Source: Oligoflexia bacterium (lineage in GTDB: Bacteria > Bdellovibrionota_G > JANQFH01). Taken from it: a stretch of 64,000 nucleotides of DNA. Below the pieces are notes generated by a model, which saw only the letters and a program-made list of their open reading frames with translations, did no database searches and was not told the DNA's origin. Shown in pieces: positions 30,357-46,433 of the stretch; the stretch's first letter is position 1, and every line of letters begins with the position of its first letter. A program made the position numbers and the translations under genes. The DNA lies in the NCBI GenBank assembly GCA_028277945.1, contig JANQFH010000068.1, positions 272,400 through 336,399 of the forward strand. The letters are read 5' to 3'.

Positions 30357-32078
30357 CTATTGCAAATACCAGTCTTCTGCTGCTTGCGCTGAATCAAACT
30401 GGTGTCCGGTGATGCGAAATCCCTTGAGGTTCGCAGGGATCACCGCCAACTGTGCCCGGTAGTAAAGCGGTATCACTGGCAGGTTCTTGGTGTACTCTTG
30501 TTGTACGATCTTCATGAGCGCTTTGCGTTTGCTAGGGTCGAATTCCGTGCGCACCTTGTCGAATGCGGCATCTGTGGCACGGTTGCGATAGCCAGAGAAG
30601 TTTTGGCCAGAATAGCCGTTTTCTTTGGTGGGAATAGATTTCGAGTGCAGTATAGAATCGGGCAGATTGCCAGGGCTGGAGATGTTGGCGTACATGGCCA
30701 TGGCTGGGAATTTTCTCTTTGTTAGGGTCTCGCCAAGAAAGACTCGCGGAGGTTCATTTTTGAGCTTGATCTCAATGCCAACTTTTTTCCATTCATTTTG
30801 TAAAAAGACTTGCACCAGCTCACGCGTCTTGTTCTCAGCCGTGGTCATCAAGGTCAGCGATAGGGGCTGGCCAGCCTTTTCGCGCATCTTATTCTTCCCG
30901 AGTTTCCATCCGGCTGCATCCAGGAGCTGGGCCGCCTTTTTGGGATCGTAGGGGTACTTCATGACATCACTAGTATAGTAAGGGTCAAGGGGATGGGTGT
31001 TGTGCATAGCCACGGGTTGTTTGCCGGCAAAGAGAGCCTGGACTAGTTTTTCGCGGTCCACAGCGTAAACCAAGGCACGACGCACACGGATGTCCTTGAG
31101 AATGGGATTGTTTAGGTTCAAGTCTATGTGCTCATAGACCATGCCTTGGCGGTATTTAATTTGGAAACGGTTCTGCAGTTTGCGATCTTTCTCTATGCGC
31201 TTTTCAAGCGCCAAGGCTTGGTCGAATGTTATGCCTAGCTCGCCCACCATATCTATGGTTCCCGAGAGGAGGTTGGCCTCAAGTGCCTGGGTATTGCGGA
31301 TGATCCTGACGATAATCTTGTCAATCTTTGCAGGCTTGCCGTAGAAGTAGGGGTTGCGCTCAAGCACGACGTGGCTGCCGAGTTTGACCTCTTTTATTAC
31401 ATAGGGGCCGTGATAGAGACCTGGGTTGGTGGGGTTACTGCTGTAGGCCGTTTGTTTTTCATAGGCGCCCAAACTGTTTTTGGTCTTCTCCCAAATCGGT
31501 CGTTCAATGTGGTTGGGAAGCAGATAGAAGGTAGCAAATTCATAGTAATCATAGCGTGGTCGATCATAGACGATCGTAAACTTCTTCGGGTTTTTTGGAT
31601 CAATGATGAACGCTTCAACCTGCTCATACTGCTCCTTTTCACCGGTAACCACGTTGGCAGATTTACCAACCTCCCAAGCAAGCTGCATATCGTAGGCAGT
31701 TACCGGAGTGCCATCGCCCCAACGGGCGTCCTTGATAATTTCCCACTGGGCGACCAACTTTTTCTCTCCCTTTTTCTCAACAATCTTCACCAGGCCGTTG
31801 TCAAAGCTAGGCATGACCTTGCATAGATGGCAGTGCCACTGCCAATCGGCGTTGATTGATGTGAGAGTACGGCCTGCCAAGTCATAGATGTAGAGGGCAG
31901 CAGCTGTCTGTGCAATCGTTGCATTGAGCGTCTCAAACTCCGAAGAGATACCTATGGTCAGCTGTTTGTTAGTTGGCAGTGCCCAGCTCGTTTTGCTGCT
32001 CCAGCCAAGCATCAGGAAAGGCATTACAATCAATAGTGTAAAACGAGCGACCTGAAATTTTTCTCGAACAGTTCGCAT
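30357..32078 (-). CDS. ABC transporter substrate-binding protein, family 5 (peptide/nickel/opine type), paralog 1 of 7
   Basis: 573 aa with a signal peptide. Shares with the six paralogs the blocks 'LPTNKQLTIG', 'ADWQWxCxLC', 'WGDGTPVT', 'NPTNPGLY', 'NPHYYGKKPKI', 'IPNTQALEANLLSGTIDM' and 'ITGHQF'. Confidence 0.85.
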   Translation of the reverse strand: MRTVREKFQVARFTLLIVMPFLMLGWSSKTSWALPTNKQLTIGISSEFETLNATIAQTAAALYIYDLAGRTLTSINADWQWHCHLCKVMPSFDNGLVKIVEKKGEKKLVAQWEIIKDARWGDGTPVTAYDMQLAWEVGKSANVVTGEKEQYEQVEAFIIDPKNPKKFTIVYDRPRYDYYEFATFYLLPNHIERPIWEKTKNSLGAYEKQTAYSSNPTNPGLYHGPYVIKEVKLGSHVVLERNPYFYGKPAKIDKIIVRIIRNTQALEANLLSGTIDMVGELGITFDQALALEKRIEKDRKLQNRFQIKYRQGMVYEHIDLNLNNPILKDIRVRRALVYAVDREKLVQALFAGKQPVAMHNTHPLDPYYTSDVMKYPYDPKKAAQLLDAAGWKLGKNKMREKAGQPLSLTLMTTAENKTRELVQVFLQNEWKKVGIEIKLKNEPPRVFLGETLTKRKFPAMAMYANISSPGNLPDSILHSKSIPTKENGYSGQNFSGYRNRATDAAFDKVRTEFDPSKRKALMKIVQQEYTKNLPVIPLYYRAQLAVIPANLKGFRITGHQFDSAQAAEDWYLQ

Positions 32079-32090
32079 GATCCTATTACC

Positions 32091-33797
32091 TCACTTTAGA
32101 TACCAGTTTTCGCTAGAAAAGGGTGACATAAACTGATGTCCGGTAATGCGATAGCCACGCAGGTTTGTTGGCGCAACACCCACAGCCACTCTAAAGTATA
32201 GCGGGATGACCGGCACATTGTTGCTGTATTCCTGTTGGACGATTTTCATCAGTTCTTTACGCTTGTCAAAGTTAAACTCCGCAAGCACGCCATCGAGCGC
32301 AGCATCGCTTGCAGCGCTAACGTAGCCACCATAGTTTTGGCCTGAGTAGCCGTTTTCCTTAGTGGGAATCTCTGAAGAACGCAGCGTTGAGGTGGGAATG
32401 CTCTCTGGACTCATCATCCAGGCATACATGATCATGTGCGGAAAATTCGCCTTACGCACGGTTTCATTGAAAAAGACTCGTGCTGGTTCGTTCTTAATGC
32501 TGACATCAATACCCACCTTCTTCCACTCGTTTTGCAGAAAGACCTGGACGATTTCACGACTCTTGTGTCCTGCTGTGGTCATGATGGTTAGGGACAAGGG
32601 TTTGCCATCTTTTTCGCGAATGCCCTGCTTGCCCATCTTCCAGCCAGCCTCCTCGAGAAGTTGAGCGGCTTTTTTTGGATCATAAGGATAGGTGGTGACA
32701 TCGTCGGTATAGTTGGGATCCAGGGGATGAATCGTATGTAAAGCTTTGGCATGTTTACCGGCAAACAGCGCCTTGACCATCTTGTCACGATCCACCGCGT
32801 GCACCAATGCCCGGCGCATGCGGAGGTCTTTGAGTATGGGGTTGCGCAGGTTGAGATCGATGTGTTCATAGATCATGCCCTGGCGATATTGGACGACAAA
32901 GCGTTTTTTGAGTTTTGGATCTTTTTGAATCCGCTTTTCAATGGCTTGGCCAATATCAAAGCCAAGGCCAATTTCCGCGATCATATCAATGGTGCCAGAG
33001 AAGAGGTTGGCCTCTAAGGTTTGTGTGTTGGGAATGACTTTAAAGATGATCTTTTCAATCTTGGGCTTGTTGCCATAAAAATGGGGATTACGCTTAAGCA
33101 CAACATGGCTGCCGAACTTCACTTCAGTTAGGCGGTAGGGGCCGTGATAAAGTCCTGGGTTGGTTGGCTGAGTAGCGTAGGCGCTCTGCTTTTCGTAGGC
33201 TCCAGGGCTTTCTTTTGTCTTTTGCCAAATTGGCGCTTCAATATGGTGTGGCAGGAGGTAGAAGGTGCCTAGATGGTAGTAGTTAAACCGCGGCTCTTTG
33301 TAGATGGTGATAAACTTCTTGGGATTTTTTGGATCAATGATAACGCGTTCAATCTGCTCATAGATGTCCTTCTCCGGCACAACAACGTTGGGAGATTTAC
33401 CAATCTCCCAGGCGAGCTTAAAGTCGTGCCCCGTTACCGGCGTGCCATCACCCCACTTCGCCCCTGCCTTGATCTGCCATCTCACCTCCAGTTTTTTCTG
33501 CCCCTTTTCTTCAATAATCTTAACCAGACCGTTTTTAAAGGTGGGAAACTCGGTGCAGAGCCAACAGGCCCACTGCCAGTCGGCATTCATTGAGGTCAGG
33601 GTACGGCCGAGAAAGCCGTATATATAGTAGTAGACAGCAGACTGTGAGATGAGGATGTTGAGTGCGTCAAACTCTTGTATGATGCCTATGGTGAGCTGTT
33701 TGTTGGTCGGTTGGGCGGTACTTCTGTGCGGTAGTGCCGTAGCCATGAGAGAGAAGAGCACAACCACCAACAAAGATCTCTGAAACCATGAACGCAT
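32091..33797 (-). CDS. ABC transporter substrate-binding protein, family 5, paralog 2 of 7
   Basis: The ORF track extends to 33875. Met27 at 33797 ('MRSWFQRSLLVVVLFSLMATALPHRSTAQPTNKQ') gives a proper signal peptide and a 10-nt gap to the permease gene. Confidence 0.8.
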   Translation of the reverse strand: MRSWFQRSLLVVVLFSLMATALPHRSTAQPTNKQLTIGIIQEFDALNILISQSAVYYYIYGFLGRTLTSMNADWQWACWLCTEFPTFKNGLVKIIEEKGQKKLEVRWQIKAGAKWGDGTPVTGHDFKLAWEIGKSPNVVVPEKDIYEQIERVIIDPKNPKKFITIYKEPRFNYYHLGTFYLLPHHIEAPIWQKTKESPGAYEKQSAYATQPTNPGLYHGPYRLTEVKFGSHVVLKRNPHFYGNKPKIEKIIFKVIPNTQTLEANLFSGTIDMIAEIGLGFDIGQAIEKRIQKDPKLKKRFVVQYRQGMIYEHIDLNLRNPILKDLRMRRALVHAVDRDKMVKALFAGKHAKALHTIHPLDPNYTDDVTTYPYDPKKAAQLLEEAGWKMGKQGIREKDGKPLSLTIMTTAGHKSREIVQVFLQNEWKKVGIDVSIKNEPARVFFNETVRKANFPHMIMYAWMMSPESIPTSTLRSSEIPTKENGYSGQNYGGYVSAASDAALDGVLAEFNFDKRKELMKIVQQEYSNNVPVIPLYFRVAVGVAPTNLRGYRITGHQFMSPFSSENWYLK

Positions 33798-33807
33798 ACT
33801 TACACTC

Positions 33808-34761
33808 CTAACGTCGGATGGCTTTGGGGTCCAGGGCATCCTGCAAACCATCGCCAAGAAAGTTAAAGCTGACAACCACTAAGAAGATCAAAAAGCCAGG
33901 GATAATCACCTGTGATGGGGCGTTGTAGATCACCTCGAGGGCATTGTTGAGCATATTGCCCCAAGACGGTGTTGGCGGTTGGATACCTAGACCCAAAAAG
34001 CTCAGTGCCGCTTCAAAGAGAATGGCCTGGCCGACATTGAGGGTGACCGAGACGATTACCGGGGAGAGAACATTGGGTAACATCTCTCGTACGATAATAC
34101 CAAAAGAGCTCTCACCGCTGATCTTTGCCGAGAGAATGAACTCCTGCTCGCGGATGGCAAGCACCGCACTGCGCACCAGGCGTGCCTGCACCATCCAGGA
34201 GAAGACGATGAAAATGAGAATCATTTTGATGACACTAGAATCCTCGCCCTTAAGAAGCTCTGATAACAGGGGCAGTTTGCTAATATCGATGGCTGCCAAG
34301 ATAATCAGAATCGGCAGAATCGGCAGGGCTAGTAGGGAATCGGTTAGCCGCATGAGCGCATGGTCGATAAAGCCACCATAGTAACCAGCCACCGTACCGA
34401 CGACAATGCCAATCAACATCGAGGCTCCAGCGGAGACAAACGCCACCATCAATGAGATGCGGGTACCATAGACCAAGCGGATGAAGACATCGCGTCCAGC
34501 CTCGTCGATTCCTAGCCAGTTCTCCCGGCTCCAAGGACCGTAGCGGCTGAGGATGTCTTGAGCGCTGGGATCAAGTCCGGTCATCTGGGCGATGAGATCT
34601 GCTCCGATTGCAACTAGACAGAAAAATCCGATGATAAAGAGACCAACCAGTGCCAGGCGGTGTTCCATAAAGCGTCCCAGAACAATCTGAAACATGCTCT
34701 GGACGTGGCCACTGGGTTGTTCAAAATCGTCGTTCTCAAAGGTTTTTGTTGAGGTCGCCAT
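33808..34761 (-). CDS. ABC transporter permease (OppC/DppC type)
   Basis: 317 aa. N-terminal TM segment, then a polytopic body with the binding-protein-dependent permease motif region ('...LGLGIQPPTPSWGNML...'). Confidence 0.85.
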   Translation of the reverse strand: MATSTKTFENDDFEQPSGHVQSMFQIVLGRFMEHRLALVGLFIIGFFCLVAIGADLIAQMTGLDPSAQDILSRYGPWSRENWLGIDEAGRDVFIRLVYGTRISLMVAFVSAGASMLIGIVVGTVAGYYGGFIDHALMRLTDSLLALPILPILIILAAIDISKLPLLSELLKGEDSSVIKMILIFIVFSWMVQARLVRSAVLAIREQEFILSAKISGESSFGIIVREMLPNVLSPVIVSVTLNVGQAILFEAALSFLGLGIQPPTPSWGNMLNNALEVIYNAPSQVIIPGFLIFLVVVSFNFLGDGLQDALDPKAIRR

Positions 34762-34778
34762 TTTGTACTCTGCGATCG

Positions 34779-35753
34779 CTATTTAAAAGAAATCCGTGGG
34801 TCTAGATAAGCGTAACAGATGTCTGCCACCAGGTTCATTACTAACACCATGCATGCCGTGATGATGAAGCTACACATGGCGACGTTAAAGTCGTTGCCGA
34901 TGATCGAATCAAACATCAGCTTACCCACCCCTTGGTAAGAGAAGACCGTCTCAGTAATCACCGCACCCGAGGCAATGCGCGGAAACTCCAAGGCGACCAC
35001 GGTAACCACAGGCAGTAGGGCGTTACGCAGGCCGTGTCGGGTTACTACATGGTGCCACGCCAAACCCTTGGCACGCGCGGTACGGATAAAGTCGAGCCGC
35101 ATGGTCTCCAACATGGAGGCACGCGTGTAGCGTATCCAACCGGCAATGGTGAGCGAGGCCAATGTAGCTGTGGGTAGCACCAGGTACTTGGCACGGTCTA
35201 AGAGGTAGGCCCACGTGCCCTGGGTTGCCTCCACGCCAATGGTCTCCACTCCACCAGCAGGAAGCCACTTGAAGAAAACGCTAAAGACGATGATGAGCAT
35301 TAGCCCTAACCAAAAAGAGGGAGCTGAAATGCCTGAGAAGGCAAAGAAGTTGACGATGTAATCAAATTTAGAGTTGGCTTTTAGGCTGGTGAGCACGCCA
35401 ATGGGAATGGCGATAAGCAACGATACGAGGATAACCGTGGCACCGAGGATCATGGTGTTGAGAAGTCGCGGTAGCAGAATGGTCGTCACGGGCTGGCGGT
35501 AGGTGCGCGAGTAACCCAAGTCTCCCTGTACAAAGGCAAATATCCATTTGCCATAGCGCTCATAAATTGGCCTATCGAGTCCTAGCTGTTTTTTCATCAG
35601 ATCTAGATTCTCTGGGGTGCAACGCGGATTGGCGGCACAGGCAATATCGAGCGGATCACCAGGCATCAAGCCCATGAGGCCGTAAGTGATGAAAGAGAGC
35701 GCAAAGAGCACAATCACCGTTTGCAGGAGCCGTCTGATAATATAGGCAGTCAT
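34779..35753 (-). CDS. ABC transporter permease (OppB/DppB type)
   Basis: 324 aa. 'MTAYIIRRLLQTVIVLFALSFITYGLM' N-terminus and EAA-like loop 'YIRTARAKGL', typical of DppB/OppB. Confidence 0.85.
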   Translation of the reverse strand: MTAYIIRRLLQTVIVLFALSFITYGLMGLMPGDPLDIACAANPRCTPENLDLMKKQLGLDRPIYERYGKWIFAFVQGDLGYSRTYRQPVTTILLPRLLNTMILGATVILVSLLIAIPIGVLTSLKANSKFDYIVNFFAFSGISAPSFWLGLMLIIVFSVFFKWLPAGGVETIGVEATQGTWAYLLDRAKYLVLPTATLASLTIAGWIRYTRASMLETMRLDFIRTARAKGLAWHHVVTRHGLRNALLPVVTVVALEFPRIASGAVITETVFSYQGVGKLMFDSIIGNDFNVAMCSFIITACMVLVMNLVADICYAYLDPRISFK

Positions 35754-35754
35754 C

Positions 35755-37452
35755 TTATTTCAGTGCCCATTTATCTGCCGAGAGGGTGGAAAAAAACTGA
35801 TGCCCAGTGATGCGAAAACCCGTTAAGTTGACAGGTACTACCGCAATTTGTGCTCTAAAGTAGAGCGGGATGGTCGGCAGCTCCTTGGTGACCTCCTGCT
35901 GGACGATCTTCATCAGTTTTTTTCGTTTGTTGAAGTCGAGCTCTAAAACAATATCGTCAAAAGCCGCATCGACCTTCTTGTTGACAAAGCCCATGACGTT
36001 TTGACCTGAAAAGCCGTTTTCTTTTCTGGGGATGGAGATCGATTGCAGGATAGATTCAGGGACATTGCCGGGGCTAGAAATATGGGCATACATCGCCATG
36101 GCGGGGTATTTTGCCTTACGTATGGTTTCACCGAAGAAAGTGCGCGACGGCTGATTCTTGATGGCAATGTCCACCCCGACCTTCTGCCATTCATGCTGCA
36201 AGAAGACCTCGACCAACTCACGCGTCTTATCTCCAGCCGTGCTCATAAAACTGAGCAGCAGCGGTTTGCCATCTCTTTCGCGCACACCGTTCTTACCAAC
36301 TTTCCATCCGGCTGCGTCGAGGAGTTCAGCCGCCTTTCTCGGATCGTAAGGGTATTTCGTGACCTCATCCGTAAAGTAGGGATCCAGAGGATGGGTTCTG
36401 TGAGACGCTGCTTGCTGTTTGCCCTCAAAAAGGGCCTCTACGAGTTTGTTGCGGTCAATGCTATAGGTTAGCGCCCGACGGACTCTACGGTCTTGAAGAA
36501 CGGGGTTACGCAGATTAAAATCAATGTGTTCAAAGATTGTACCTTGGCGGTAACTAACACGAAAGCGCTTTTTCAATTCGGGGTCCTTTTCAATGCGCTT
36601 TTCTAGCGCGAGCGCCTGATCAAATTTAATGCCGATCTCACTGATCATATCAATGGTGCCAGCAAGCAAATTGGCTTCCAATGCCTGGGTATTGGGGATG
36701 ATTTTAAAAATCAACTTCTCAATCTTGGGCTTGCGACCATAGTAGTGTGGGTTGCGCACCAGGATGACATGGCTTCCTGCTTTGGCCTCCCTGACCATGT
36801 AGGGTCCCATGGAGAGTCCGGGGTTGGTGGGGTTTGTGCTGTAGGCGGTCTGTTTTTCATACGCCCCCAAGCTGTTCTTGCTCTTCTCCCAGATCGGCCC
36901 TTCAATGTGACTGGGCAATAGGTGGAAAGTGCCTATTTGATAATAGTCGTAACGAACCTTGTGGTATTTCGTTGTAAACCGCTTTGGGTTTTTTGGGTCT
37001 ATGGTAAAGCTCTCGATCTGCTCAAAAACATCTTTAAGACCGACTATGACGTTTTTCGACTTACCCACCTCCCAGGCGAGCTTCATGTCATAAGCGGTGA
37101 CCGGTGTGCCATCACCCCAAGTTGCTTTAGGGTGGATCTCCCACTGCACCAGCAGCTTTTTCTTGCCGTCTTCTTCGATGGCCTTGGCTAGACCATTGTC
37201 TATGGTTGGCAGCTTGGTGCAGAGCCAGCACTGCCATTGCCAGTCTGAATTAATTTCAGTGAGGCCATGCGTAAACAAATAGTAAATGTAGAAGCCACCG
37301 GAATTCTGCGAGATGAGGGGGTTGAGACTGTCGTACTCCTGGGTGATTCCGATAGTTAGCTGCTTGTTGGTTGGCAAGGCATGCGCTAACGGCACCTTCC
37401 ATGCCATACTCAGCAATAATATTAGACTGAAAACGCTTTTGAGTTGTTGCAT
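35755..37452 (-). CDS. ABC transporter substrate-binding protein, family 5, paralog 3 of 7
   Basis: 565 aa with a signal peptide and the same conserved blocks as paralogs 1-2. Separated by 2 nt from the permease gene. Confidence 0.85.
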   Translation of the reverse strand: MQQLKSVFSLILLLSMAWKVPLAHALPTNKQLTIGITQEYDSLNPLISQNSGGFYIYYLFTHGLTEINSDWQWQCWLCTKLPTIDNGLAKAIEEDGKKKLLVQWEIHPKATWGDGTPVTAYDMKLAWEVGKSKNVIVGLKDVFEQIESFTIDPKNPKRFTTKYHKVRYDYYQIGTFHLLPSHIEGPIWEKSKNSLGAYEKQTAYSTNPTNPGLSMGPYMVREAKAGSHVILVRNPHYYGRKPKIEKLIFKIIPNTQALEANLLAGTIDMISEIGIKFDQALALEKRIEKDPELKKRFRVSYRQGTIFEHIDFNLRNPVLQDRRVRRALTYSIDRNKLVEALFEGKQQAASHRTHPLDPYFTDEVTKYPYDPRKAAELLDAAGWKVGKNGVRERDGKPLLLSFMSTAGDKTRELVEVFLQHEWQKVGVDIAIKNQPSRTFFGETIRKAKYPAMAMYAHISSPGNVPESILQSISIPRKENGFSGQNVMGFVNKKVDAAFDDIVLELDFNKRKKLMKIVQQEVTKELPTIPLYFRAQIAVVPVNLTGFRITGHQFFSTLSADKWALK

Positions 37453-37461
37453 AGCAAACCT

Positions 37462-39168
37462 CTATTTCAAATGCCACGAATCTGCTGACATGGTCGAGTA
37501 ATACTGATGCCCAGTGATACGAAATCCCCGCAGGTTTGTGGGGATAACAGCGATCTCCGCACGATTATACAGCGGAATCACCGGCACCTCTTTGACATAC
37601 TCCTGCTGTATGATCTTCATAAGCTTCTTGCGTTGGTTAAAGTCAAATTCCACAAAGATTTGATCCAGAGCCTGGTCTGTTTTGGCGTTAGTGTAGCCGG
37701 TGAAATTAAGACCGCTAAAGCCATTTGCCTTGGTGGGAATTTGCGATGAATGCAAATTTTGCTTTGGCGGTTGGTCAGGGCTAGAGACCCAGGCAAACAT
37801 CGCCATAGCGGGAAAGTTACGCTTTCTTGCTGTTTCACTGAAAAAGACGCGAGCTGGTTCATTTTTGATCTTAATGTCAAAACCCACCTTGCGCCACTCG
37901 TTTTGCAAAAACACCTCAACCAGTTCACGGGTTTTATCACCAGCTGTAGTCATGATGGTCAGTGAGAGGGGTTTGCCCGCTTTCTCGCGCACGCCTTGCT
38001 TGTTTAGCTTCCAGCCGGCTGCCTCAAGCAGCTTGCCGGCCTTTTGCGGATTGTAGGGGTACTTCATAACATCCTCTGTATAGTAGGGATCAAGAGGATG
38101 CACCGAATGCAGCGCCTTTTGCTGCTTACCCTCAAAGAGCGCCTGTACCAACTTATCGCGATCTATGGCGTACATGAGCGCACGCCGTACTCGTATATCC
38201 TTGAGAATCGGATTGCTTAGATTGAGGTCAATGTGTTCGTAGAGCGTGGCACGTCGGTACTTTACGGCAAACCTCTCCTTGAGCTTGGGATCACCCATGA
38301 GCCGCTTTTCAAAGGAGAGTGCCTGATCCAAAGTCATGCCGAGCTCACACGCCATATCAATGGTTCCTGAGAGCAGGTTGGCTTCGAGAGCCTGGGTATT
38401 GTGGATGAGCTTAAAGACAATCTGTTGGATGGCGGGCTTCTTACCGTAGTAGTGTGGGTTGGGTGTCATGACGATGTGGCTGCCGACCTTGATCTCTTTA
38501 ATTAGGTAAGGACCAGAGTAGAGACCAGGATGCGTTGGGTTGGTGACATAGATAGTCTGCTTTTCATAGGCGCCCTGCTTGTCCTTGGTCTTTTCCCACA
38601 CCTTGGCTTCAAGATGGTGTGGGACCAAGCGAAAACGTCCTAGTTGGTAGTAGTCGTAGCGGTGTTGTTTGTATATGGTGGTGAACTGTTTGGGGTCTTT
38701 GTTGTTGACAGTAACCTTTTCAAAACGTTGGTAGTAGTCTTTCTCGGCGACCATGACATGCGGAGAGCGGCCAATCTCCCAGGCGAGTTTAAAATCATAA
38801 CCAGTCACCGGCTTACCATCACCCCATTTGGCATCTGGTTTGATTTTCCAGTCGACCTGTAGTTTTTTCTTGCCATCTATTTCTATAAACTTGGCCATGC
38901 CGTTTTCAAAGGTGGGCAGTTCGGTGCACAGCCAGCAGCCCCACTGCCAATCGGCGTCGATGGTCGTTAGTGGATGGTCGACCAGATTAGAGATGTAGGC
39001 GGTTGCGGCCATCTCATGGATAATGGGATTGAGGGTTTCAAACTCCTGGACAATGCCAATGACGAGCTCGCGGTTACTTGGGGCCGCAGCAAGTTGTTGC
39101 AACCACATCACTGCTGCAAGAAAGAGCAGTAATGCAGTAAAACCAGATTTATATAAGCGTTGTTTCAT
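37462..39168 (-). CDS. ABC transporter substrate-binding protein, family 5, paralog 4 of 7
   Basis: 568 aa with a signal peptide and the same conserved blocks ('APSNRELVIG', 'WQWGCWLCTELPTF'). Confidence 0.85.
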   Translation of the reverse strand: MKQRLYKSGFTALLLFLAAVMWLQQLAAAPSNRELVIGIVQEFETLNPIIHEMAATAYISNLVDHPLTTIDADWQWGCWLCTELPTFENGMAKFIEIDGKKKLQVDWKIKPDAKWGDGKPVTGYDFKLAWEIGRSPHVMVAEKDYYQRFEKVTVNNKDPKQFTTIYKQHRYDYYQLGRFRLVPHHLEAKVWEKTKDKQGAYEKQTIYVTNPTHPGLYSGPYLIKEIKVGSHIVMTPNPHYYGKKPAIQQIVFKLIHNTQALEANLLSGTIDMACELGMTLDQALSFEKRLMGDPKLKERFAVKYRRATLYEHIDLNLSNPILKDIRVRRALMYAIDRDKLVQALFEGKQQKALHSVHPLDPYYTEDVMKYPYNPQKAGKLLEAAGWKLNKQGVREKAGKPLSLTIMTTAGDKTRELVEVFLQNEWRKVGFDIKIKNEPARVFFSETARKRNFPAMAMFAWVSSPDQPPKQNLHSSQIPTKANGFSGLNFTGYTNAKTDQALDQIFVEFDFNQRKKLMKIIQQEYVKEVPVIPLYNRAEIAVIPTNLRGFRITGHQYYSTMSADSWHLK

Positions 39169-39219
39169 GATTTAGACCTCCCGTTACTCAAAATATCCCT
39201 TTTATTCCAAATACCCCCA

Positions 39220-40929
39220 TTACTCTAAATACCATTGATCTGCTGACTGGGTTGAATAAAACTGATGTCCGCTGATACGAAAGCCACGCAGGTTTGTTGG
39301 CACCACGACCACTTCAGAGCGGTTGTATAAAGGTATGACCGGCACCTCCTTGGCATACTCCTGCTGGACGATCTTCATCAACTGCTTGCGCTTTTGAAAA
39401 TCAAACTCTCTTAGGACCTTATCTAGAGCAGTGTCGTTTCTAACATTGGCAAAACCGGTGTAGTTTTGTCCGGAATAACCGTTGTCGACTGTTGGTATCT
39501 CTTTAGAGTGGGTTGTCGATATAGGCGGTACATCCGGACTAGCGATCCAGGCAAACAGTACCATGGCTGGGAACTTTCGTTGTGGCAGGGTGACACCAAA
39601 TAAGACCCGCGCCGGCTCGTTTTTAATGGTAATGTCAACTGCCACTCGCTTCCATTCGTTTTGCAGAAAAACCTGCACCAGCTCGCGGGTCTTATTGCCG
39701 GCTGTGGTCATAAGGTTTAGGGAGAGCTTTTTACCGTCCTTTTGCCGTATGCCATCCTCGCCCATCTTCCAGCCTGCTTGATCAAGGAGCTTGGCTGCTC
39801 TTTTAGGGTCAAAACGGTACTGCCTGACATCATCCGTATAATAGGGATCCAGAGGGTGGATGTTGTGGAGCGCCTTCTTCTGCATGCCCTGAAAAAGCGC
39901 TTGTACGAGTTTATCGCGATCGATAGCGTGTACCAGAGCTCGGCGCACACGGATGTCTTTTAGAATTGGATTGTTCATGTTGAGATCAATGTGCTCGTAG
40001 ATGGTTCCCTGCCGGTAGAGCACTTTATAGCGCTTTTTTAGCTTTGGATCTTGGGCAAGCCGTTTTTCAAAGGCCAAGCCTTGATCAAACTGCAGGCCGT
40101 TTTCATTGATCATATCCACCGTGCCAGAGAGCAAGTTGGCCTCAAGTGTTTGCGTGTTGGGAATGATTTTAACAATGATCTTTTCGATTTTTGCTGTGTT
40201 GCCATAGTAATGCGGGTTGCGTTCGAGAATAATATGGCTGCCAGCCTTGACTCCTTTAGCGACATAGGGTCCACAGTAGAGCCCAGGGTTGGTTGGGTTG
40301 GTGTTGTAGTGGGTCTGTTTCTCGTAAGCTCCCTGGCTTGCTTTTGTTTTTTCCCAAATCGGTCCCTCTAGGTGGTGTGGTGTTAGATAAAAGGTTCCTA
40401 ACTGGTAGTAGCTGTAACGCGGCTCCTTATAGATTGTCCTGAATTTCTTAGGATTTTTTGCATCAATATGAAAGCTCTCGATCTGCTCATACTGGTCTTT
40501 CTCTCCCGCTAGAACATTGGGAGACCTGCCGATTTCCCAGGCGAGTTTCATATCGTAGCCGGTCACAGGCTTGCCGTCTCCCCAGCTGGCTTTGGCTTTG
40601 ATCTGCCAGTCGACCTGCAATTTCTTTTTGCCATCTTGCTCAATGATCTTGACTAAGCCATTTTCAAAGGTGGGCAGCTCCTTACAGAGCCAGCAGGCCC
40701 ACTGCCAATCAGCGTTAATGGCAGTAAGGGTGTGCGTGAGCAGTCCATCCAGATAAGCGCGTGCCGAAGAATTGGAGATGTTAGGGTTTAATGTATCAAA
40801 CTCTTGGGCTGTGGCGATGGTCAACTGCTTGTTGCTGGGCAGTGCAATTGCTGGCCTTGTCATCGGCACGGATGTAACAAGTACTACACCCAGTAGGAGA
40901 ATCTGCTTTACGAAACCAGCCTTTGTCAT
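39220..40929 (-). CDS. ABC transporter substrate-binding protein, family 5, paralog 5 of 7
   Basis: The ORF track start is 40941. Met5 (40929) gives a 4-nt overlap with the upstream paralog. Signal peptide and conserved blocks are present. Confidence 0.8.
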   Translation of the reverse strand: MTKAGFVKQILLLGVVLVTSVPMTRPAIALPSNKQLTIATAQEFDTLNPNISNSSARAYLDGLLTHTLTAINADWQWACWLCKELPTFENGLVKIIEQDGKKKLQVDWQIKAKASWGDGKPVTGYDMKLAWEIGRSPNVLAGEKDQYEQIESFHIDAKNPKKFRTIYKEPRYSYYQLGTFYLTPHHLEGPIWEKTKASQGAYEKQTHYNTNPTNPGLYCGPYVAKGVKAGSHIILERNPHYYGNTAKIEKIIVKIIPNTQTLEANLLSGTVDMINENGLQFDQGLAFEKRLAQDPKLKKRYKVLYRQGTIYEHIDLNMNNPILKDIRVRRALVHAIDRDKLVQALFQGMQKKALHNIHPLDPYYTDDVRQYRFDPKRAAKLLDQAGWKMGEDGIRQKDGKKLSLNLMTTAGNKTRELVQVFLQNEWKRVAVDITIKNEPARVLFGVTLPQRKFPAMVLFAWIASPDVPPISTTHSKEIPTVDNGYSGQNYTGFANVRNDTALDKVLREFDFQKRKQLMKIVQQEYAKEVPVIPLYNRSEVVVVPTNLRGFRISGHQFYSTQSADQWYLE

Positions 40930-42656
40930 TGTAAGTGCCATTGCTCTACAGTATTCACCGCATAGAATTGATGTCCAGTTAAGCGAAAGCCGCGTAGATT
41001 CATAGGAATCACAGCTATCTGTGTACGGTAGTATAGCGGTATCACCGGCACCTCCTTGGCGTACTGCTGTTGGACAATCTTCATCAGTTTCCTGCGTTCC
41101 GCAAAGCTGAACTCCTCCGTGATCTTCTCCAGTGCAGCGTCGGTTTCAGGATCTTTAAACCCCGGAAAGTTTTGCCCAGAGTAACCGTTTTTCGCCGTTG
41201 GGATTTCACTGGAGTGGAGCATGTACCATGGAACAAAATCCGGTGCGGCAGCCCAGGCGTACATCGCCATAGCAGGGAACTTCAGTCTGCGTAATGTCTC
41301 GGAAAAGAAGATGCGCGGGGGTGTGTTCTTCAGCTTGATTTCTATGCCAACTTTTTTCCACTCGTTTTGCAAAAAAACCTGTACTAACTCGCGCGTTTTG
41401 TTCTCCGCAGTGGTCATAAAGATAAATGACAGCTTCTTACCGTTCTTTTGTCGAATGCCAGCTGGCCCCATGGTCCACCCAGCAGCGTCCAATAAGCTTG
41501 CCGCCCGTTTCGCGTCATAGGGGTAGCGCATGACATCGTCTGTATAGTAGGGATCCAGCGGGTGTACGGGGTGGAGGGCGACCTGTTGTCGGCCTGCAAA
41601 GAGCGCCTTTACCAAAGCGTGGCGATCTATAGCGTACACTAGTGCTCGCCGTACGCGGATGTCCTGGAGAATGGGGTTGCGCAGGTTCAGGTCAATATGT
41701 TCGTATAAAGGACCCTCACGGTACTTGACTTCAAAACGTCTCTTGAGTGCCGCATCTCCGCTTAGCCTTTTGTCCAGGGACAGAGCTTGGTCCAGGTTCA
41801 AAGAACCTTCAACAATCATATCGACTGTGCCGGAGAGCAGGTTGGCCTCGAGAGCCTGCGAGTTTGGAATGATTTTAAAGACGAGTCTTTCAATTTTTGG
41901 TTTTTTTCCATGGAAGTGCGGATTGCGCTTGACAACTACATGGCTGCCCGGCTTGATCTCTTTGACTAGATAGGGGCCGCAGTAGAGTCCAGAGTTGGTC
42001 GGATTGGTATTATAGGTGGTCTGTTTTTCATAAGCGCCCACGCTATTTTTGGTTCGCTCCCACACTGGCCCTTCAATATGATGGGGTAGCACGTAAAAGT
42101 TTGGCATTTGATAATAATCGTAACGTGGCTTGTCGTACTTTGTCGTAAACTTCTTGGGGTTTTTAGGATCAATCGTGAACGCCTCGATCTGCGTGTACTG
42201 TTCTTTTCCTCCGCTAGCTACATTTGGGGATTTTCCCACCTTCCAGGCGAGCTGAATGTCGTAGCCCGTAACCGGTGTACCATCGCCCCATTTGGCATTG
42301 GCTTTAAACTCCCAGTCGACCAACAGTTTCTTTTTGCCCTTCTCTTCGATTATCCTTACCATGCCATTTTCCAAAGTTGGCATCTTCGTACAGAGCCAGC
42401 ATCGCCACTGCCAATCAGCATCGATTGCATTAATGCGATAACCGACAGTCGAGTAGATATACTGGCTACCCAATTGTTGCGAGAGCAAGGGGTTGAGAGA
42501 GTAAAACTCATGGGTCATGCCCAGGGTGAGTTGTTTGTTGTTTGGCTGAGCAGCGATGAGTTCTGTGGCAGCGCAGAGGTTAAGAAGCAGAGTAGCCAAT
42601 ACAGAGAGTTTTTGCAGGTTGTTCTTCATGTTTTTATTACCTATTGCAGATTCCAT
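40926..42656 (-). CDS. ABC transporter substrate-binding protein, family 5, paralog 6 of 7
   Basis: 576 aa. 'AQPNNKQLTLG' and 'WQWRCWLCTKMPTL'. An alternative start is Met10 (42629). Confidence 0.8.
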   Translation of the reverse strand: MESAIGNKNMKNNLQKLSVLATLLLNLCAATELIAAQPNNKQLTLGMTHEFYSLNPLLSQQLGSQYIYSTVGYRINAIDADWQWRCWLCTKMPTLENGMVRIIEEKGKKKLLVDWEFKANAKWGDGTPVTGYDIQLAWKVGKSPNVASGGKEQYTQIEAFTIDPKNPKKFTTKYDKPRYDYYQMPNFYVLPHHIEGPVWERTKNSVGAYEKQTTYNTNPTNSGLYCGPYLVKEIKPGSHVVVKRNPHFHGKKPKIERLVFKIIPNSQALEANLLSGTVDMIVEGSLNLDQALSLDKRLSGDAALKRRFEVKYREGPLYEHIDLNLRNPILQDIRVRRALVYAIDRHALVKALFAGRQQVALHPVHPLDPYYTDDVMRYPYDAKRAASLLDAAGWTMGPAGIRQKNGKKLSFIFMTTAENKTRELVQVFLQNEWKKVGIEIKLKNTPPRIFFSETLRRLKFPAMAMYAWAAAPDFVPWYMLHSSEIPTAKNGYSGQNFPGFKDPETDAALEKITEEFSFAERRKLMKIVQQQYAKEVPVIPLYYRTQIAVIPMNLRGFRLTGHQFYAVNTVEQWHLQ

Positions 42657-44341
42657 TGGTCTATAGAAAGCACCGAATAAAACTGGTGTCCGGTTAAGCG
42701 AAACCCCTTGAGGTTTTTTGGTATCACGGCAATTTGAGCCCTGTAGTACAGGGGAATGACTGGCAGCTCTTTGGCATACTCTTGCTGGACAGTCTTCATG
42801 AGTTCCTTGCGTTTACCAAAATCGAATTCCGTCTGGATTTGATCGAGCGCTCTGTCGTTTGCCACGCTCTTATACCCTGGATAGTTCTGCCCTGAAAAGC
42901 CATTTTCGGCTGTTGGAATCTCAAGCGAATGTGTAGTGGTTCGCGGTGGATTGTCAGGGGAGGATATCCACGCATACATCGCCATGGCTGAGAACTTGCG
43001 TTTGCGCAAGGTTTCACTGAAAAATACCCGCGGCGGCAGATTTTTTAAGCGCACCTTAATACCGATCTTTTTCCATTCGTTTTGTAAAAAGACCTGTACC
43101 AGCTCGCGGGTCTTGTTTTCAGCAGTGGTTATGAAGACGAATGACAGCTTCTTGCCGTCCTTCGCACGCATACCATCTTGGCCTAGCTTCCAGCCCGCCT
43201 TGTCAAGTAACCTTGCCGCCCTTTTTGGATCGTAAGGGTACTGCATCACGGCGTCGGTGAAATAGGGATCGAGTGGGTTGATGTTATGTAGCGCCACTTG
43301 CTGCTTGCCTTTGAAAAGCGCGTCGACAAGAGCCTGGCGATTGATGGCATGCACCAATGCTTGGCGTACGCGGATGTCCTGGAGGACCGGGTTGCTCAGG
43401 TTCAAATCAATGTGCTCATACATCGTGCCCTGGCGAAACTTCACCATGTAACGTTGCTGTAGTGCTGTATCGCTTGCAAGCCGTTTGTTAAAGGCTAAGG
43501 CTTGGTCAAACTCTAAGCCGGACTCGGAGATCATGTCGATGGTGCCGGAGAGCAGATTAGCTTCCATTGCCTGGGTATTAGGGATTATTTTTAAGACAAT
43601 CTTGTCAATCTTTGGCTTTTTTCCATAGTAGTGTGGGTTGCGCGCTATCATCACATGGCTACCCACCTTGACCTCTTCCACTCTATAAGGCCCACAGTAA
43701 AGCCCTGGATGCGTCGGCTGGGTGGTATAGGCGCTCTGTTTTTCATAAGCGCCAAGGCTGTGCTGGGTCTTTTCCCAAATAGCTCCCTCAATGTGATGCG
43801 GCAATAAATTGACTGTCCCAAGGTGATAGTAGTCGTAACGTGGTTTGTCGTAGGTAATGGTAAACTTCTTGGGATTTTTGCGGTCAACCTCTATGGATTC
43901 GAACTGTTCGTAGAGATCCTTGCTACCAACCGCAACATTAGGGGATTTGCCTACCTTCCAGGCGAGCTGCAAGTCATACCCTGTTACCGGTATGCCATCA
44001 CCCCATTTGGCATTGGCTTTGATCTGCCAATCTACCACCAACCTTTTCTTGCCTTTTTTTGTAATGAGTCTGGCCATGCCATTTTCAAAGGTCGGAACCT
44101 CGGTGCACAGTAGGCATTGCCACTGCCAATCGGCGTTAATCGTAATTAGAGAATGGACGACACTTCTACCAATGTATCGTCCGCCGATGGTTTGCGAAAT
44201 CAAGCTGTTGAGAGTGTCAAACTCATGAACCATGCCAATGGTAAGCTGCTTGTTCGACGGTGCTGCGCTTGTCTGGCTCGCGATACTGATTGTCAGAAGC
44301 ACTATAGATGCGAGTCGCATTGTAAGTTGGAAGCATTTCAT
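42641..44341 (-). CDS. ABC transporter substrate-binding protein, family 5, paralog 7 of 7
   Basis: 566 aa with a signal peptide. 'WQWQCLLCTEVPTF'. 4-nt overlap with the upstream ATPase gene. Confidence 0.85.
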   Translation of the reverse strand: MKCFQLTMRLASIVLLTISIASQTSAAPSNKQLTIGMVHEFDTLNSLISQTIGGRYIGRSVVHSLITINADWQWQCLLCTEVPTFENGMARLITKKGKKRLVVDWQIKANAKWGDGIPVTGYDLQLAWKVGKSPNVAVGSKDLYEQFESIEVDRKNPKKFTITYDKPRYDYYHLGTVNLLPHHIEGAIWEKTQHSLGAYEKQSAYTTQPTHPGLYCGPYRVEEVKVGSHVMIARNPHYYGKKPKIDKIVLKIIPNTQAMEANLLSGTIDMISESGLEFDQALAFNKRLASDTALQQRYMVKFRQGTMYEHIDLNLSNPVLQDIRVRQALVHAINRQALVDALFKGKQQVALHNINPLDPYFTDAVMQYPYDPKRAARLLDKAGWKLGQDGMRAKDGKKLSFVFITTAENKTRELVQVFLQNEWKKIGIKVRLKNLPPRVFFSETLRKRKFSAMAMYAWISSPDNPPRTTTHSLEIPTAENGFSGQNYPGYKSVANDRALDQIQTEFDFGKRKELMKTVQQEYAKELPVIPLYYRAQIAVIPKNLKGFRLTGHQFYSVLSIDQWNLQ

Positions 44342-45339
44342 ACGGTTGCTCCGCTTAGTTTTTCAGCAAAGTGACAGGAGACCAGATGCGGCCGCAGCTC
44401 AGCGCCAAGATTACGTAGTTGCGGCAGTTCTTGTTGGCATTGCGGTTGTGCGTGGGGACAGCGTGGATGAAAGTGACAGCCCGAGGGAGGTGAGAGTGGG
44501 CTTGGCACATCGCCACCGAGCGCCTGCCGCTTTTTTCTCTGCCCGTGTCCTGGGGTTGGGTTAGCCTTGATCAACGCTTGCGTATAAGGGTGGCGAGGAT
44601 TGTCAAAGAGTGCGTCGCGCCCTGCCATTTCAACCACCTTACCGAGATACATCACGGCAATACGGTGCGAGATGTGTTTGACCAAGGCAAGATCGTGGGC
44701 AATGAAGAGATAGGCCATACCCAGATCATCCTGCAGGTCTTTGAAGAGGTTGAGTATCTGTGCCTGTACGGAGACGTCGAGTGCCGATACCGGTTCGTCG
44801 GCCACCACCAACTGTGGCCGCAGGGAAATGGCACGGGCAATGGCAATACGTTGGCGCTGTCCTCCGGAGAACTCATGCGGATAGCGTGCCTGTGCCCAGT
44901 CGCCAAGGCCAACGCGATTGAGTAGCTCGCGGACTTTTTGGCGTCGTTCTTTTGCTGTGCCCAGTTTGTGCACCCGCAGCGGCGTCTCTAGGATTTTGGC
45001 GATGGTCATGCGCGGATTGAGGGAGCTGAAGGGATCTTGAAACACCATGGTGACATTGCGACGAAACTCAAGCAGGGCACTGCCTTTCAACCCAGTGACC
45101 GACTGTCCGTTAAAACAGATATCTCCAGCCGTGGGTTCGTAGATACGCACTACAGTACGCGCTGCTGTGGATTTGCCGCAACCACTCTCGCCCACCAGTC
45201 CCAAGGTCTCGCCCTTGGCCAAATCAAAGCTAACGCCATCCACTGCGTAAACACTGCCGGTTTGCCGCAACAACAGTCCCGAGTGTACGGGGAAGTGCTT
45301 TTTAAGCTGTTTTACTTCTAGCAGCGTTTCAGAGGACAA
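44338..45339 (-). CDS. ABC transporter ATP-binding protein (OppF/DppF type)
   Basis: 333 aa. Walker A 'GESGCGKST', signature 'FSGGQRQR', Walker B 'LVVADEP'. C-terminal oligopeptide-ABC Cys/His tail ('CHFHPRCPHAQPQC'). Confidence 0.9.
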   Translation of the reverse strand: MSSETLLEVKQLKKHFPVHSGLLLRQTGSVYAVDGVSFDLAKGETLGLVGESGCGKSTAARTVVRIYEPTAGDICFNGQSVTGLKGSALLEFRRNVTMVFQDPFSSLNPRMTIAKILETPLRVHKLGTAKERRQKVRELLNRVGLGDWAQARYPHEFSGGQRQRIAIARAISLRPQLVVADEPVSALDVSVQAQILNLFKDLQDDLGMAYLFIAHDLALVKHISHRIAVMYLGKVVEMAGRDALFDNPRHPYTQALIKANPTPGHGQRKKRQALGGDVPSPLSPPSGCHFHPRCPHAQPQCQQELPQLRNLGAELRPHLVSCHFAEKLSGATV

Positions 45340-45356
45340 AATTCAAGGCTCCTCAC

Positions 45357-46433
45357 TCAACATGGGTTAAAACAGGCAACCTCATGGCCCTGTCGGTGTT
45401 TTTGTAATATAGGGTCTTGGTGCCTACAGACGCTGGTGACATTGGGACAGCGGTTCTGGTAACGACAGCCAGGCGGTAGGTTCAAGAGTGGCGGCACCGA
45501 ACCTTTAATCGTGCTAAGCCGCGGGACGTTTTTGTCGATGCGTGGAATCGACTCAAACAGTCCGACTGTGTAGGGATGTTTTGGGTTGTTAAAGATCGTC
45601 TCACAGTCAGCCTTTTCAACGATTTTGCCGGCGTACATAACGAGAACGCGATCAGCAATTTCAGAGATGACGCCAAGATCGTGGGTGATGAACTGAATCG
45701 CCATTCCGAGCTTTTCTTGCAACTCCTGCAATAGGTCCAAGATCTGTGCCTGTATGGTTACATCGAGAGCCGTGGTCGGTTCATCGGCGATCAACAGCTC
45801 GGGCTTGCAGCTAAGCGCCATGGCGATCATGGCTCGTTGTCGCATACCGCCAGAGAGCTGGTGCGGGTAATCGTCGATGCGTTTTTCTGGCGCCGGTATG
45901 CCGACAAGCTGAAACAGCTCGATGGCGCGTTGGCGCGCCTCCTGTTTGCTCACTTTGGTTTCGTGCGTTTGAATCTGCTCGACAATCTGTCGGCCGATGC
46001 GCATCACCGGATTGAGTGCGGTCATAGGTTCCTGAAAGATCATGGCAATGCGACCGCCGCGGATCTGCTGCATCTGTTGCTCGGAAAGGGCAGTCAGCTC
46101 AATCTCCTTGAGCCATACCTTGCCTGCGGTCACTCTGCCGGGATCGGCAATCAGACCCATGATGGAAAAGCTGGTGACGGTTTTGCCGCAGCCACTCTCG
46201 CCAACAATGCCGACGGTTTCACCGGCACTGACTTTATAAGAGACACCATCCACAGCTTTGATGACGCCAGCCTTGGTGAAAAAGGAGGTCTCTAAATTAT
46301 CTACAACGAGCAGCTCGTGCATCACTACATCAATAAAGGTGCAATCCTGTTGCCAATCTGTAAGGGCGGCGAATGCTCCTGAATAGCCAATAATCTTAAA
46401 TAGATCAAGGTATTTAGCCACCGCGTCGATCAT
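45357..46433 (-). CDS. ABC transporter ATP-binding protein (OppD/DppD type)
   Basis: Walker A 'GESGCGKTV', 'LSGGMRQR', 'LLIADEP'. C-terminal 'CRYQNRCPNVTSVCRH'. The likely true start is an internal Met ('MHELLVVDN', about 46322), so the N-terminal 37 aa of the ORF are doubtful. Confidence 0.85.
   Translation of the reverse strand: MIDAVAKYLDLFKIIGYSGAFAALTDWQQDCTFIDVVMHELLVVDNLETSFFTKAGVIKAVDGVSYKVSAGETVGIVGESGCGKTVTSFSIMGLIADPGRVTAGKVWLKEIELTALSEQQMQQIRGGRIAMIFQEPMTALNPVMRIGRQIVEQIQTHETKVSKQEARQRAIELFQLVGIPAPEKRIDDYPHQLSGGMRQRAMIAMALSCKPELLIADEPTTALDVTIQAQILDLLQELQEKLGMAIQFITHDLGVISEIADRVLVMYAGKIVEKADCETIFNNPKHPYTVGLFESIPRIDKNVPRLSTIKGSVPPLLNLPPGCRYQNRCPNVTSVCRHQDPILQKHRQGHEVACFNPC

Follow-up and report, generated by a model that had tools for sequence, protein, structure and literature searches.

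Seven old, divergent substrate-binding protein paralogs in the operon of a probable Opp/Dpp-type ABC importer from an Oligoflexia bacterium

In Pseudomonas aeruginosa, the DppBCDF transporter is served by the substrate-binding proteins (SBPs) DppA1-A5, which have been shown by experiment to have overlapping but different specificities; four are encoded close to the transporter genes and the fifth at another site, and their identities are about 50-83% (PMC4206461). The Pseudomonas SBP genes lie upstream of BCDF and are transcribed separately, with genes for a porin, a peptidase and a regulator between them. Streptococcus pneumoniae uses AmiA, AliA and AliB (also AliC and AliD), SBP_bac_5 paralogs that are 52-60% identical and have a common permease, and structures of the AmiA/Ali proteins reveal differing pocket chemistry and hence differing peptide preference (PMC11192437). 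The proteins of this Gram-positive organism are lipoproteins about 650 aa in length, and the Ali genes are dispersed over its genome. In Borrelia burgdorferi, five OppA proteins (OppA1-5) work with one Opp transporter (PMC6719511). The Borrelia proteins are also lipoproteins, differentially regulated, with two of them plasmid-borne. Three of the OppA genes adjoin the permease genes as a tandem array.

The locus described here lies in a window of 64,000 nucleotides from contig JANQFH010000068.1 of an Oligoflexia bacterium (assembly GCA_028277945.1). ORF calls place 11 genes, all intact, on the minus strand at 46433-30357, in the order of two ATPases, five SBPs, two permeases and two SBPs. As with DppA1-A5, several family-5 SBP paralogs accompany one Dpp/Opp-type translocator; unlike the Pseudomonas genes, the seven SBP genes form one tight D-F-A5x-B-C-A2x operon and belong to another, uncharacterised SBP subfamily. 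Rather than lipoproteins encoded by scattered genes, as in the pneumococcus, the products here are soluble and periplasmic, about 540 aa long once mature, and their genes lie in tandem. In contrast to Borrelia, there are seven copies, two of which lie downstream of the permeases. The features of the locus, from its upstream end, are as follows.

46323..46508, no strand: probable regulatory region, between a divergent gene for a 241-aa protein (46509-47234, plus strand) and the likely start of D
45357..46433, minus strand: D, OppD/DppD-type ATPase; maximal ORF 358 aa; Pfam ABC_tran and oligo_HPY
44338..45339, minus strand: F, OppF/DppF-type ATPase; 333 aa, TTG start; Pfam ABC_tran and oligo_HPY
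42641..44341, minus strand: A1, SBP paralog; 566 aa; SBP_bac_5 E 2e-66
40926..42656, minus strand: A2, SBP paralog; maximal ORF 576 aa, or 567 aa from the ATG at 42629
39220..40941, minus strand: A3, SBP paralog; maximal ORF 573 aa, or 569 aa from the ATG at 40929
37462..39168, minus strand: A4, SBP paralog; 568 aa
35755..37452, minus strand: A5, SBP paralog; 565 aa
34779..35753, minus strand: B, OppB/DppB-type permease; 324 aa; Pfam BPD_transp_1 and BPD_transp_1_N
33808..34761, minus strand: C, OppC/DppC-type permease; 317 aa; Pfam BPD_transp_1 and OppC_N
32091..33797, minus strand: A6, SBP paralog; 568 aa from the ATG at 33797, equal to database entry P0007 (568 aa)
30357..32078, minus strand: A7, SBP paralog; 573 aa
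30351-29422, minus strand: GhrA-like 2-hydroxyacid dehydrogenase, by Pfam/NCBIfam matches
29409-28684, minus strand: MBL-fold glyoxalase-II-like hydrolase, by Pfam/NCBIfam matches
28709/28670-27471, minus strand: secreted GSDH/PVC-type beta-propeller protein, by Pfam/NCBIfam matches

The start of D is probably Met38 at 46322, giving a protein of 321 aa, because its NCBIfam match starts at residue 41 and the D proteins of relatives are 319-322 aa long. The 567-aa form of A2 agrees with database entry P0002, and use of the TTG start of the maximal A6 ORF (to 33875, overlapping permease C) is unlikely. Intergenic junctions across the operon range from -4 to 51 nt, rather than the 2-16 nt given in the original prediction. 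The start of A1 overlaps the stop of F by 4 nt, and the sole sizeable spacer, of 51 nt with a GGGAGG ribosome-binding site, precedes A4. Exactly seven SBP copies were found in the window by tblastn, and each of them, free of internal stops, matches Pfam SBP_bac_5 (E 1e-61 to 1e-66). This confirms the predicted seven full-length SBPs with five between the ATPases and permeases and two downstream. The locus has one each of B, C, D and F alongside these seven; the claim of a single permease and ATPase set stands for the window only, as other Opp-type translocators and SBP paralogs may lie elsewhere in the genome, with database entries P0089 and possibly P0013 as candidates. The sequence blocks that had been quoted as shared by the SBPs are truly conserved, but as consensus strings they occur exactly in only zero to four of the seven copies.

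Downstream of A7 come three co-directional genes (27471..30351), separated from their respective preceding genes by 5, 12 and about 13 nt, which may be co-transcribed with the transporter operon; their linkage to the operon is absent in the relatives examined. The gene layout makes 46323..46508 a probable promoter or regulatory region. A consensus promoter/terminator scan showed no enrichment and nothing convincing in that region.

Pairwise protein identity among the seven SBPs is 58-65%, a divergence almost equal to that of the pneumococcal paralogs, and codon-aligned nucleotide identity is 61-66%. Synonymous differences are saturated (pS 0.74-0.85) with dN of 0.25-0.33, such that a quantitative dN/dS is not meaningful. 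No 60-codon window between paralogs exceeds 78% nucleotide identity, and no gene-conversion tracts were found among the seven. Given the saturated synonymous sites and the lack of any more similar window, the duplications are old and constrained, without recent homogenisation; an old expansion had been predicted. A recent duplication or an assembly artefact is ruled out by the protein identities, the synonymous saturation and the absence of conversion tracts. Column identity in the alignment of the seven averages 74%, and about 200 columns are invariant; together with the intact ORFs, the invariant columns rule out pseudogenes, and all seven copies are still under purifying selection. The original prediction had named identities above 90%, or frameshifts and stops in several copies, as evidence against an array of diversified receptors; every pair falls far below that identity, and no copy in the assembled sequence has a frameshift or a stop.

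To locate the divergence, paralog variability was scored from entropy profiles against random seven-member sets of family orthologs, with A1 numbering. The paralogs are more variable than the ortholog sets at residues 39-57, 274-278, 435-443, 460-469 and 489-492. Mapping of these segments to the pocket was by homology rather than coordinates, and two of them, 39-57 and 460-469, plausibly line the ligand cleft. Conversely, a helix at 514-522 (LMKIVQQEY) is far more uniform among the paralogs than in the ortholog sets and is invariant in all seven; it is lineage-specific and may be a permease-docking surface. The pattern would fit diversification on the ligand side with a common docking constraint. 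Two copies also depart from the family at near-invariant positions: Trp458 is replaced by His in A5 and by Asn in A7, and Asp463 by Gly in both, at positions that are W in 110 of 120 homologs and D or E in 114 of 120, respectively.

These data bear on whether the copies serve dosage or redundancy, raising the amount of receptor or acting as back-ups with essentially identical ligands. A translocator normally needs its SBPs in large excess, which would give extra copies a use, and the overall conservation of the seven is high. Amplifications kept for dosage, however, are usually recent and near-identical, rather than diverged to saturation at synonymous sites; the variability rises above that of the family in a small number of discrete segments, and two near-invariant residues are missing from A5 and A7. 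Dosage is therefore an improbable explanation, and diversification of the receptors is preferred.

In a neighbor-joining tree with 120 homologs, the seven SBPs of the window are monophyletic in 88 of 100 bootstraps. Since they form their own clade, the tree points to an old expansion within the lineage at its own locus. Within the clade, A3 tentatively pairs with A6 and A5 with A7, a pairing that would support a block duplication as the source of the two copies downstream of the permeases. The contig also carries an eighth paralog, which the tree places outside the seven-copy clade; it is an orphan, without any transporter nearby, and has partly lost helix 514-522. A segmental duplication joining the array and the orphan through their AAA_14/DUF4143 neighbours was considered and rejected, as the two neighbour proteins have an identity of only 28%.

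The gene order had been described as atypical, but D-F-A-B-C is the normal order in relatives of this SBP family, a Bdellovibrio among them. The proposed comparison of copy number showed that relatives carry one, two or at least four SBPs. The one-SBP D-F-A-B-C operon is found in Bdellovibrio reynosensis (L006) and in most of the 87 loci examined, two-SBP operons occur at L088, L091/L092 and L093, and the operon at L007 carries at least four. The L007 copies are monophyletic in 100 of 100 bootstraps, so their expansion is independent of that of the window's seven. Inheritance of the array from an ancestor common to other multi-copy relatives is ruled out, since the window's seven and the four of L007 form separate clades. 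Receptor amplification is thus recurrent for this operon type, with independent arrays in other lineages. A literature search on the Bdellovibrio ortholog or on larger tandem SBP arrays found nothing specific. In the contig scan, the best match of an SBP was to an SBP from a Lentisphaeria MAG, at 48%. A housekeeping radical-SAM protein has full-length matches of at most about 46%, and the named ones are from Acidobacteriota.

The operon has the domain set of the Opp/Dpp type (PepT family), namely OppB and OppC permeases, two oligo_HPY ATPases and cluster-C SBPs. F passes the cutoff of NCBIfam PRK11308, "dipeptide ABC transporter ATP-binding protein" (425.6 bits against 408), and the best NCBIfam matches of B and C, Opp4B and Opp4C, are under their cutoffs. 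No SBP reaches the cutoff of a named equivalog (OppA, DppA, NikA, GsiB, SapA, CntA, Opp4A and others), with scores of 37-165 bits against curated cutoffs of 393-1098 bits. From sequence, the SBPs form an unnamed, uncharacterised subfamily of the family-5 SBPs. An AF2 model of A1 (pLDDT 93.4) has the three-domain fold, with TM of 0.70-0.91 to the cluster-C SBPs in the first ranks. The closest solved relatives by both sequence and fold, and the top fold matches, are 2D5W from Thermus thermophilus HB8 (sequence E 9e-75, Foldseek E 7e-50, 30% identity) and 1XOC, AppA of Bacillus subtilis (sequence E 2e-37, 23% identity), with a bound pentapeptide and nonapeptide, respectively. 2d5w lacks the DWQWxCxLC Cys-pair motif of the SBPs here, whose Cys76 and Cys79 may form a disulfide.

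Family-5 SBPs bind peptides, metal chelates, opines and oligosaccharides. The original prediction held that these ligand classes could not be distinguished from sequence alone; the present data favour peptides over nickel, opines or sugars, because the closest proteins of solved structure bind peptides and because a SohB-like S49 peptidase gene is the commonest co-directional neighbour of the relatives' operons (8 of 83 neighbouring ORFs), often directly upstream in close relatives. The rival proposal, that the ligands are metal chelates (as for NikA, NikZ or CntA), opines or oligosaccharides, draws on that breadth of the family and on three further observations. NikA-type and Opp4A-type models score the SBPs about equally, both far under cutoff, and NikZ and NikA take the third and next places among the fold matches of the A1 model. 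In OppA and DppA in the strict sense, moreover, a conserved Asp in the motif G-W-x-x-D salt-bridges the ligand alpha-amino group (OppA Asp419, DppA Asp408), and this Asp is not present here: G-W-L-G-D of B. subtilis OppA aligns to A-W-I-S-S, with Ser461 at the Asp-equivalent position, which is Ser in 93 of 120 family members. Yet AppA and 2d5w, both peptide binders, likewise lack the Asp, so Ser461 is compatible with peptide ligands. The two best sequence and fold matches are peptide-bound, 2d5w being far ahead of the others, F belongs with the dipeptide-type ATPases by its cutoff, the peptidase gene is linked in relatives, and no metallophore, opine or glycoside-hydrolase genes were found adjoining the operon. 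Non-peptide ligands are accordingly considered unlikely, and peptides remain the favoured class.

A further proposal is that some paralogs act as sensors in chemotaxis or signalling, or as periplasmic chaperones, and that the transporter uses only a subset. The cluster-C SBPs DppA and AapF do have sensory roles, the fold matches include 7kz9, a structure of AapF with a signalling molecule, conserved positions have atypical residues in A5 and A7, and the orphan paralog lies away from any transporter. All seven, however, are within the transporter operon with translationally coupled junctions, helix 514-522 is kept in each of them though partly lost in the orphan, and no chemoreceptor or kinase gene was found adjoining the operon. 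A sensory or chaperone role is thus very improbable, well below either of the other two alternatives, and uptake by receptors that serve one transporter is the reading retained.

The locus is probably, then, a Gram-negative Opp/Dpp-type (PepT family) ABC importer whose receptor was amplified in place long ago to give seven constrained paralogs. By analogy with Pseudomonas DppA1-5, pneumococcal AmiA/Ali and Borrelia OppA1-5, it is best read as a multi-receptor peptide importer, and the core of the original prediction, a multi-receptor uptake system on one translocator, is supported. The 11 genes, possibly 14, would be transcribed as a single unit, starting upstream of D. Sec would export the seven SBPs, and signal peptidase I would cut them just before the conserved A-x-P-x-N-K-Q-L mature end. 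In the periplasm, each would take a partly different subset of ligands, most probably oligopeptides, into the cleft between its lobes. The loaded, closed SBP would then dock on the single B/C permease heterodimer, with translocation powered by the D/F ATPase heterodimer. In this way, multiplication and diversification of the receptor may widen the ligand range, the affinity range or both for one pump. A stronger version is possible but doubtful: that the SBPs are a sub-functionalised receptor battery, the largest in-operon array in the survey for an Opp/Dpp-type pump, from a family prone to repeated amplification (1, 2, at least 4 and 7 copies in lineages that include Bdellovibrio relatives), in which individual members, A5 and A7 above all, have shifted to another chemistry or class of ligand.

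What stands out is the copy number, whereas the concept of several receptors for one transporter is already known; the locus extends, without overturning, the principle from Pseudomonas, Streptococcus and Borrelia. If the paralogs have partitioned ligand space, they would provide seven matched receptors of about 60% identity with the same fold, host and docking partner, helping to map what determines specificity in cluster-C SBPs and to engineer it for uptake or biosensors. If A5 and A7 have indeed shifted, the battery would be a natural series for the rewiring of specificity with docking to one translocator preserved. The recurrent amplification points to strong selection for the scavenging of peptides or related compounds in these little-studied bacteria.

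The operon comprises eleven consecutive open reading frames on the minus strand, from 46433 to 30357, and encodes OppD/F-type ATPases (D and F), OppB/C-type permeases (B and C) and family-5 substrate-binding proteins (SBPs; A1 to A7).

Genes of the operon in order, with Pfam domains
45357-46433, minus strand: D, 358 aa as the maximal ORF, ABC_tran and oligo_HPY
44338-45339, minus strand: F, 333 aa, ABC_tran and oligo_HPY
A1 at 42641-44341, then A2 to A5, minus strand: SBPs of 566, 576/567, 573/569, 568 and 565 aa, SBP_bac_5
Minus strand: permease B, 324 aa, BPD_transp_1 and OppB N-terminal domain
Minus strand: permease C, 317 aa, BPD_transp_1 and OppC N-terminal domain
From the ATG at 33797, minus strand: SBP A6, 568 aa, SBP_bac_5
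Minus strand: SBP A7, 573 aa, SBP_bac_5

A tblastn search with A1 across the window finds exactly seven SBP copies and no fragments, and together with the ORF calls and Pfam matches it bears out the original prediction of seven SBPs beside one permease and ATPase set. D and F are separated by 17 nt, and the other junctions are -4, 11, -4, 51, 9, 1, 17, 10 and 12 nt; the genes are tightly packed, and the range is -4 to 51 nt rather than 2-16 nt. The true start of D is most likely Met38 (position 46322), given a family match that starts at residue 41 and the length of 319-322 aa of D proteins in relatives. Both ATPases carry a C-terminal C-x5-C-x6-C...C pattern within the oligo_HPY region, reminiscent of a motif that is reported to bind [4Fe-4S] in certain Opp/Dpp ATPases. 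The N-termini of A1 to A7, judged from sequence, have the signal peptide features anticipated for all seven: a charged beginning followed by a hydrophobic core, and Ala at -1 before a conserved A-x-P-x-N-K-Q-L, with no lipobox cysteine in any of the seven. This fits export by Sec, cleavage by signal peptidase I and a soluble periplasmic location.

The seven SBPs share 58-65% protein identity in all-against-all comparison and 61-66% nucleotide identity in codon alignment. For pairs among A1 to A7, Nei-Gojobori estimates give a proportion of synonymous differences of 0.74-0.85, which is fully saturated, such that a numerical dN/dS is not meaningful, and a dN of 0.25-0.33. Nucleotide identity stays at or below 78% in every 60-codon window of every pair. 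Together, the saturation, the dN values and the window maximum argue that the copies are ancient, have not been homogenised by recent gene conversion and are under purifying selection. Identity above 90%, frameshifts and stops, any of which would have spoken for a recent duplication or an artefact, are absent from the seven copies, and the proposed old expansion holds.

Searching 5.8 billion proteins for homologs recovered the seven copies and an eighth paralog, P0089, which is 53% identical and is an orphan gene distant from any transporter. For all eight, the contig has one and the same recorded length of 426,222 bp and is taken as a single NCBI/Logan contig. P0013 (Logan SRR20820740, contig L089), a further family member with 55% identity to A1, shares its sequencing run with P0089 but is recorded on a separate contig, for which NCBI gives 146 kb. 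It may represent a ninth paralog from this genome, or else a gene of a co-occurring organism. The nearest foreign SBPs are 50-58% identical, and the few that are named belong to Bdellovibrio, Bdellovibrionaceae or 'Deltaproteobacteria'. Neighbor-joining on the 120 best homologs groups the seven SBPs in one clade that excludes P0089 (88 of 100 bootstraps), with A1+A2 (95/100), A3+A6 (75/100) and A5+A7 (69/100) paired inside it. The pairs A3/A6 and A5/A7 lie in collinear order, and it is speculated, with modest support, that duplication of an [A3..A5-B-C] block followed by loss of surplus copies would have left two SBPs downstream of the permeases.

The gene order had been regarded as atypical, but a survey of 87 related loci reveals D-F-A-B-C as the family norm in closer relatives, with A-B-C(-D-F) in more distant ones. 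A single SBP is seen in 82 of the 87. Bdellovibrio reynosensis (L006) and a 322-kb metagenomic contig both have D-F-A-B-C with one SBP. Two SBPs occur as D-F-A-A-B-C in loci L088 and L091/L092, and as A-A-B-C only in L093, whose contig begins inside the array. In locus L007, D-F is followed by at least four SBPs, which are monophyletic in 100 of 100 bootstraps and so expanded independently of the array described here. The copy numbers sought in related genomes are thus 1, 2 and at least 4, with seven the highest among the loci surveyed, and receptor amplification at the SBP position is recurrent. The commonest family among 83 co-directional ORFs flanking the relatives' operons is Peptidase_S49 (SohB-like; 8 of 83). 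In B. reynosensis, the locus checked individually, D is directly preceded by this gene (L006, 6968-7987). The window's operon lacks it at that place and has a divergent 241-aa gene without family match there instead.

Sequence had been thought unable to distinguish peptides, opines, nickel and oligosaccharides as ligands, and this can now be narrowed. No SBP or permease of the operon approaches an NCBIfam equivalog cutoff (the best SBP models, Opp4A and NikA, score 127-165 bits against cutoffs of 393-650), and F is above the cutoff of a dipeptide-ATPase subfamily. The closest solved relative by far is pentapeptide-bound 2D5W from T. thermophilus (E 9e-75, or 1e-89 with a seven-paralog profile), followed by nonapeptide-bound AppA from B. 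subtilis (1xoc). Foldseek with an AlphaFold2 model of A1 (pLDDT 93.4, pTM 0.87) gives the same ranking, followed by NikZ/NikA and many OppA/DppA structures. The peptide-bound matches in sequence and predicted fold, the ATPase assignment and the S49 neighbors favor oligopeptides. In OppA/DppA, the ligand alpha-amino group is anchored by the Asp of G-W-x-x-D, and its alignment to Ser461 of A1 (A-W-I-S-S) is a caveat; 2D5W and AppA likewise lack Asp at this position.

As a background for variability among the paralogs, 200 sets of seven family orthologs were drawn at random. The paralogs exceed this background at A1 residues 39-57, 274-278, 435-443, 460-469 and 489-492. By homology to OppA-type structures, segment 39-57, directly after the first beta-strand, and segment 460-469, directly after Trp458 (the counterpart of the G-W-x-x-D Trp in the alignment), should line the ligand cleft. 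Variability is far below background in the mature N-terminus, in DWQWxCWLC (69-77) and in helix 514-522 (LMKIVQQEY), a candidate docking surface for the single B/C pair; P0089 has partly lost the helix motif. Trp458 is conserved in 110 of 120 homologs and is His or Asn only in A5 and A7; residue 463 is Asp or Glu in 114 and Gly in four, A5 and A7 among them. These changes make A5 and A7 the best candidates for altered specificity. Cys76 and Cys79 of the DWQWxCxLC motif, with equivalents in A2 to A7, are both present in 97 of 120 homologs, both absent in 23 and never single, which suggests a disulfide or joint metal site in the periplasmic SBP. Neither cysteine is present in B. reynosensis or Thermus 2D5W.

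Features around the operon
2533-7093, minus strand: BatD-like, VWA/TPR and adjoining genes, resembling a Bat (aerotolerance-type) operon
27471-30351, minus strand: three co-directional genes after A7 (gaps of 5, 12 and ~13 nt), as follows
First, minus strand: GhrA-like 2-hydroxyacid dehydrogenase
Second, minus strand: MBL-fold glyoxalase-II-like hydrolase
Third, minus strand: secreted GSDH-like propeller protein with PVC-type (Piru_Ver_Nterm) domain
47229-48386, minus strand: AAA_14/DUF4143 ATPase gene adjoining the array
48618-51554, minus strand: phosphonate-type ABC importer just upstream of the region (Phosphonate-bd SBP, ABC_tran ATPase, BPD_transp_1 permease)
57267-57362, minus strand: tRNA-Sec gene, anticodon TCA
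58770-61376, minus strand: TIGR03960-type radical SAM/DUF2344 housekeeping protein

The three genes after A7 may share the operon's transcript; their linkage to the transporter is absent from the relatives' loci. A second AAA_14/DUF4143 gene adjoins P0089 (L005, 948-2111), but the two ATPases are only 28% identical, which rules out a block duplication joining the array and P0089. The tRNA-Sec gene indicates that the organism probably uses selenocysteine. The radical SAM/DUF2344 protein has no full-length database match above ~46% identity besides itself, and the lineage of the organism appears to be poorly sampled. At 44-55% GC, the window has the look of ordinary chromosomal DNA.

Systems in which one translocator draws on several SBPs are well documented. 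In P. aeruginosa, DppBCDF is served by DppA1-A5, with four SBP genes clustered with the transporter, identities of ~50-83% and distinct utilisation profiles (PMC4206461). The pneumococcal AmiA/AliA/AliB/AliC/AliD proteins are 52-60% identical and differ in pocket chemistry (PMC11192437), and Borrelia has one Opp system with five OppA proteins (PMC6719511). By analogy, the locus would work like these systems, but it differs from them in having seven copies, in being one compact operon with SBPs flanking the permease genes on both sides, and in that its SBPs belong to an uncharacterised subfamily. Searches of the open-access literature gave no account of this subfamily, nor any of an in-operon array with more copies. 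The overall reading as a multi-receptor system on one translocator is supported, with corrections to gene order, junctions and ligand class. The locus is an unusually large case of a known arrangement, and the concept is not surprising; its moderate interest lies in offering a natural specificity series and evidence that receptor amplification recurs.
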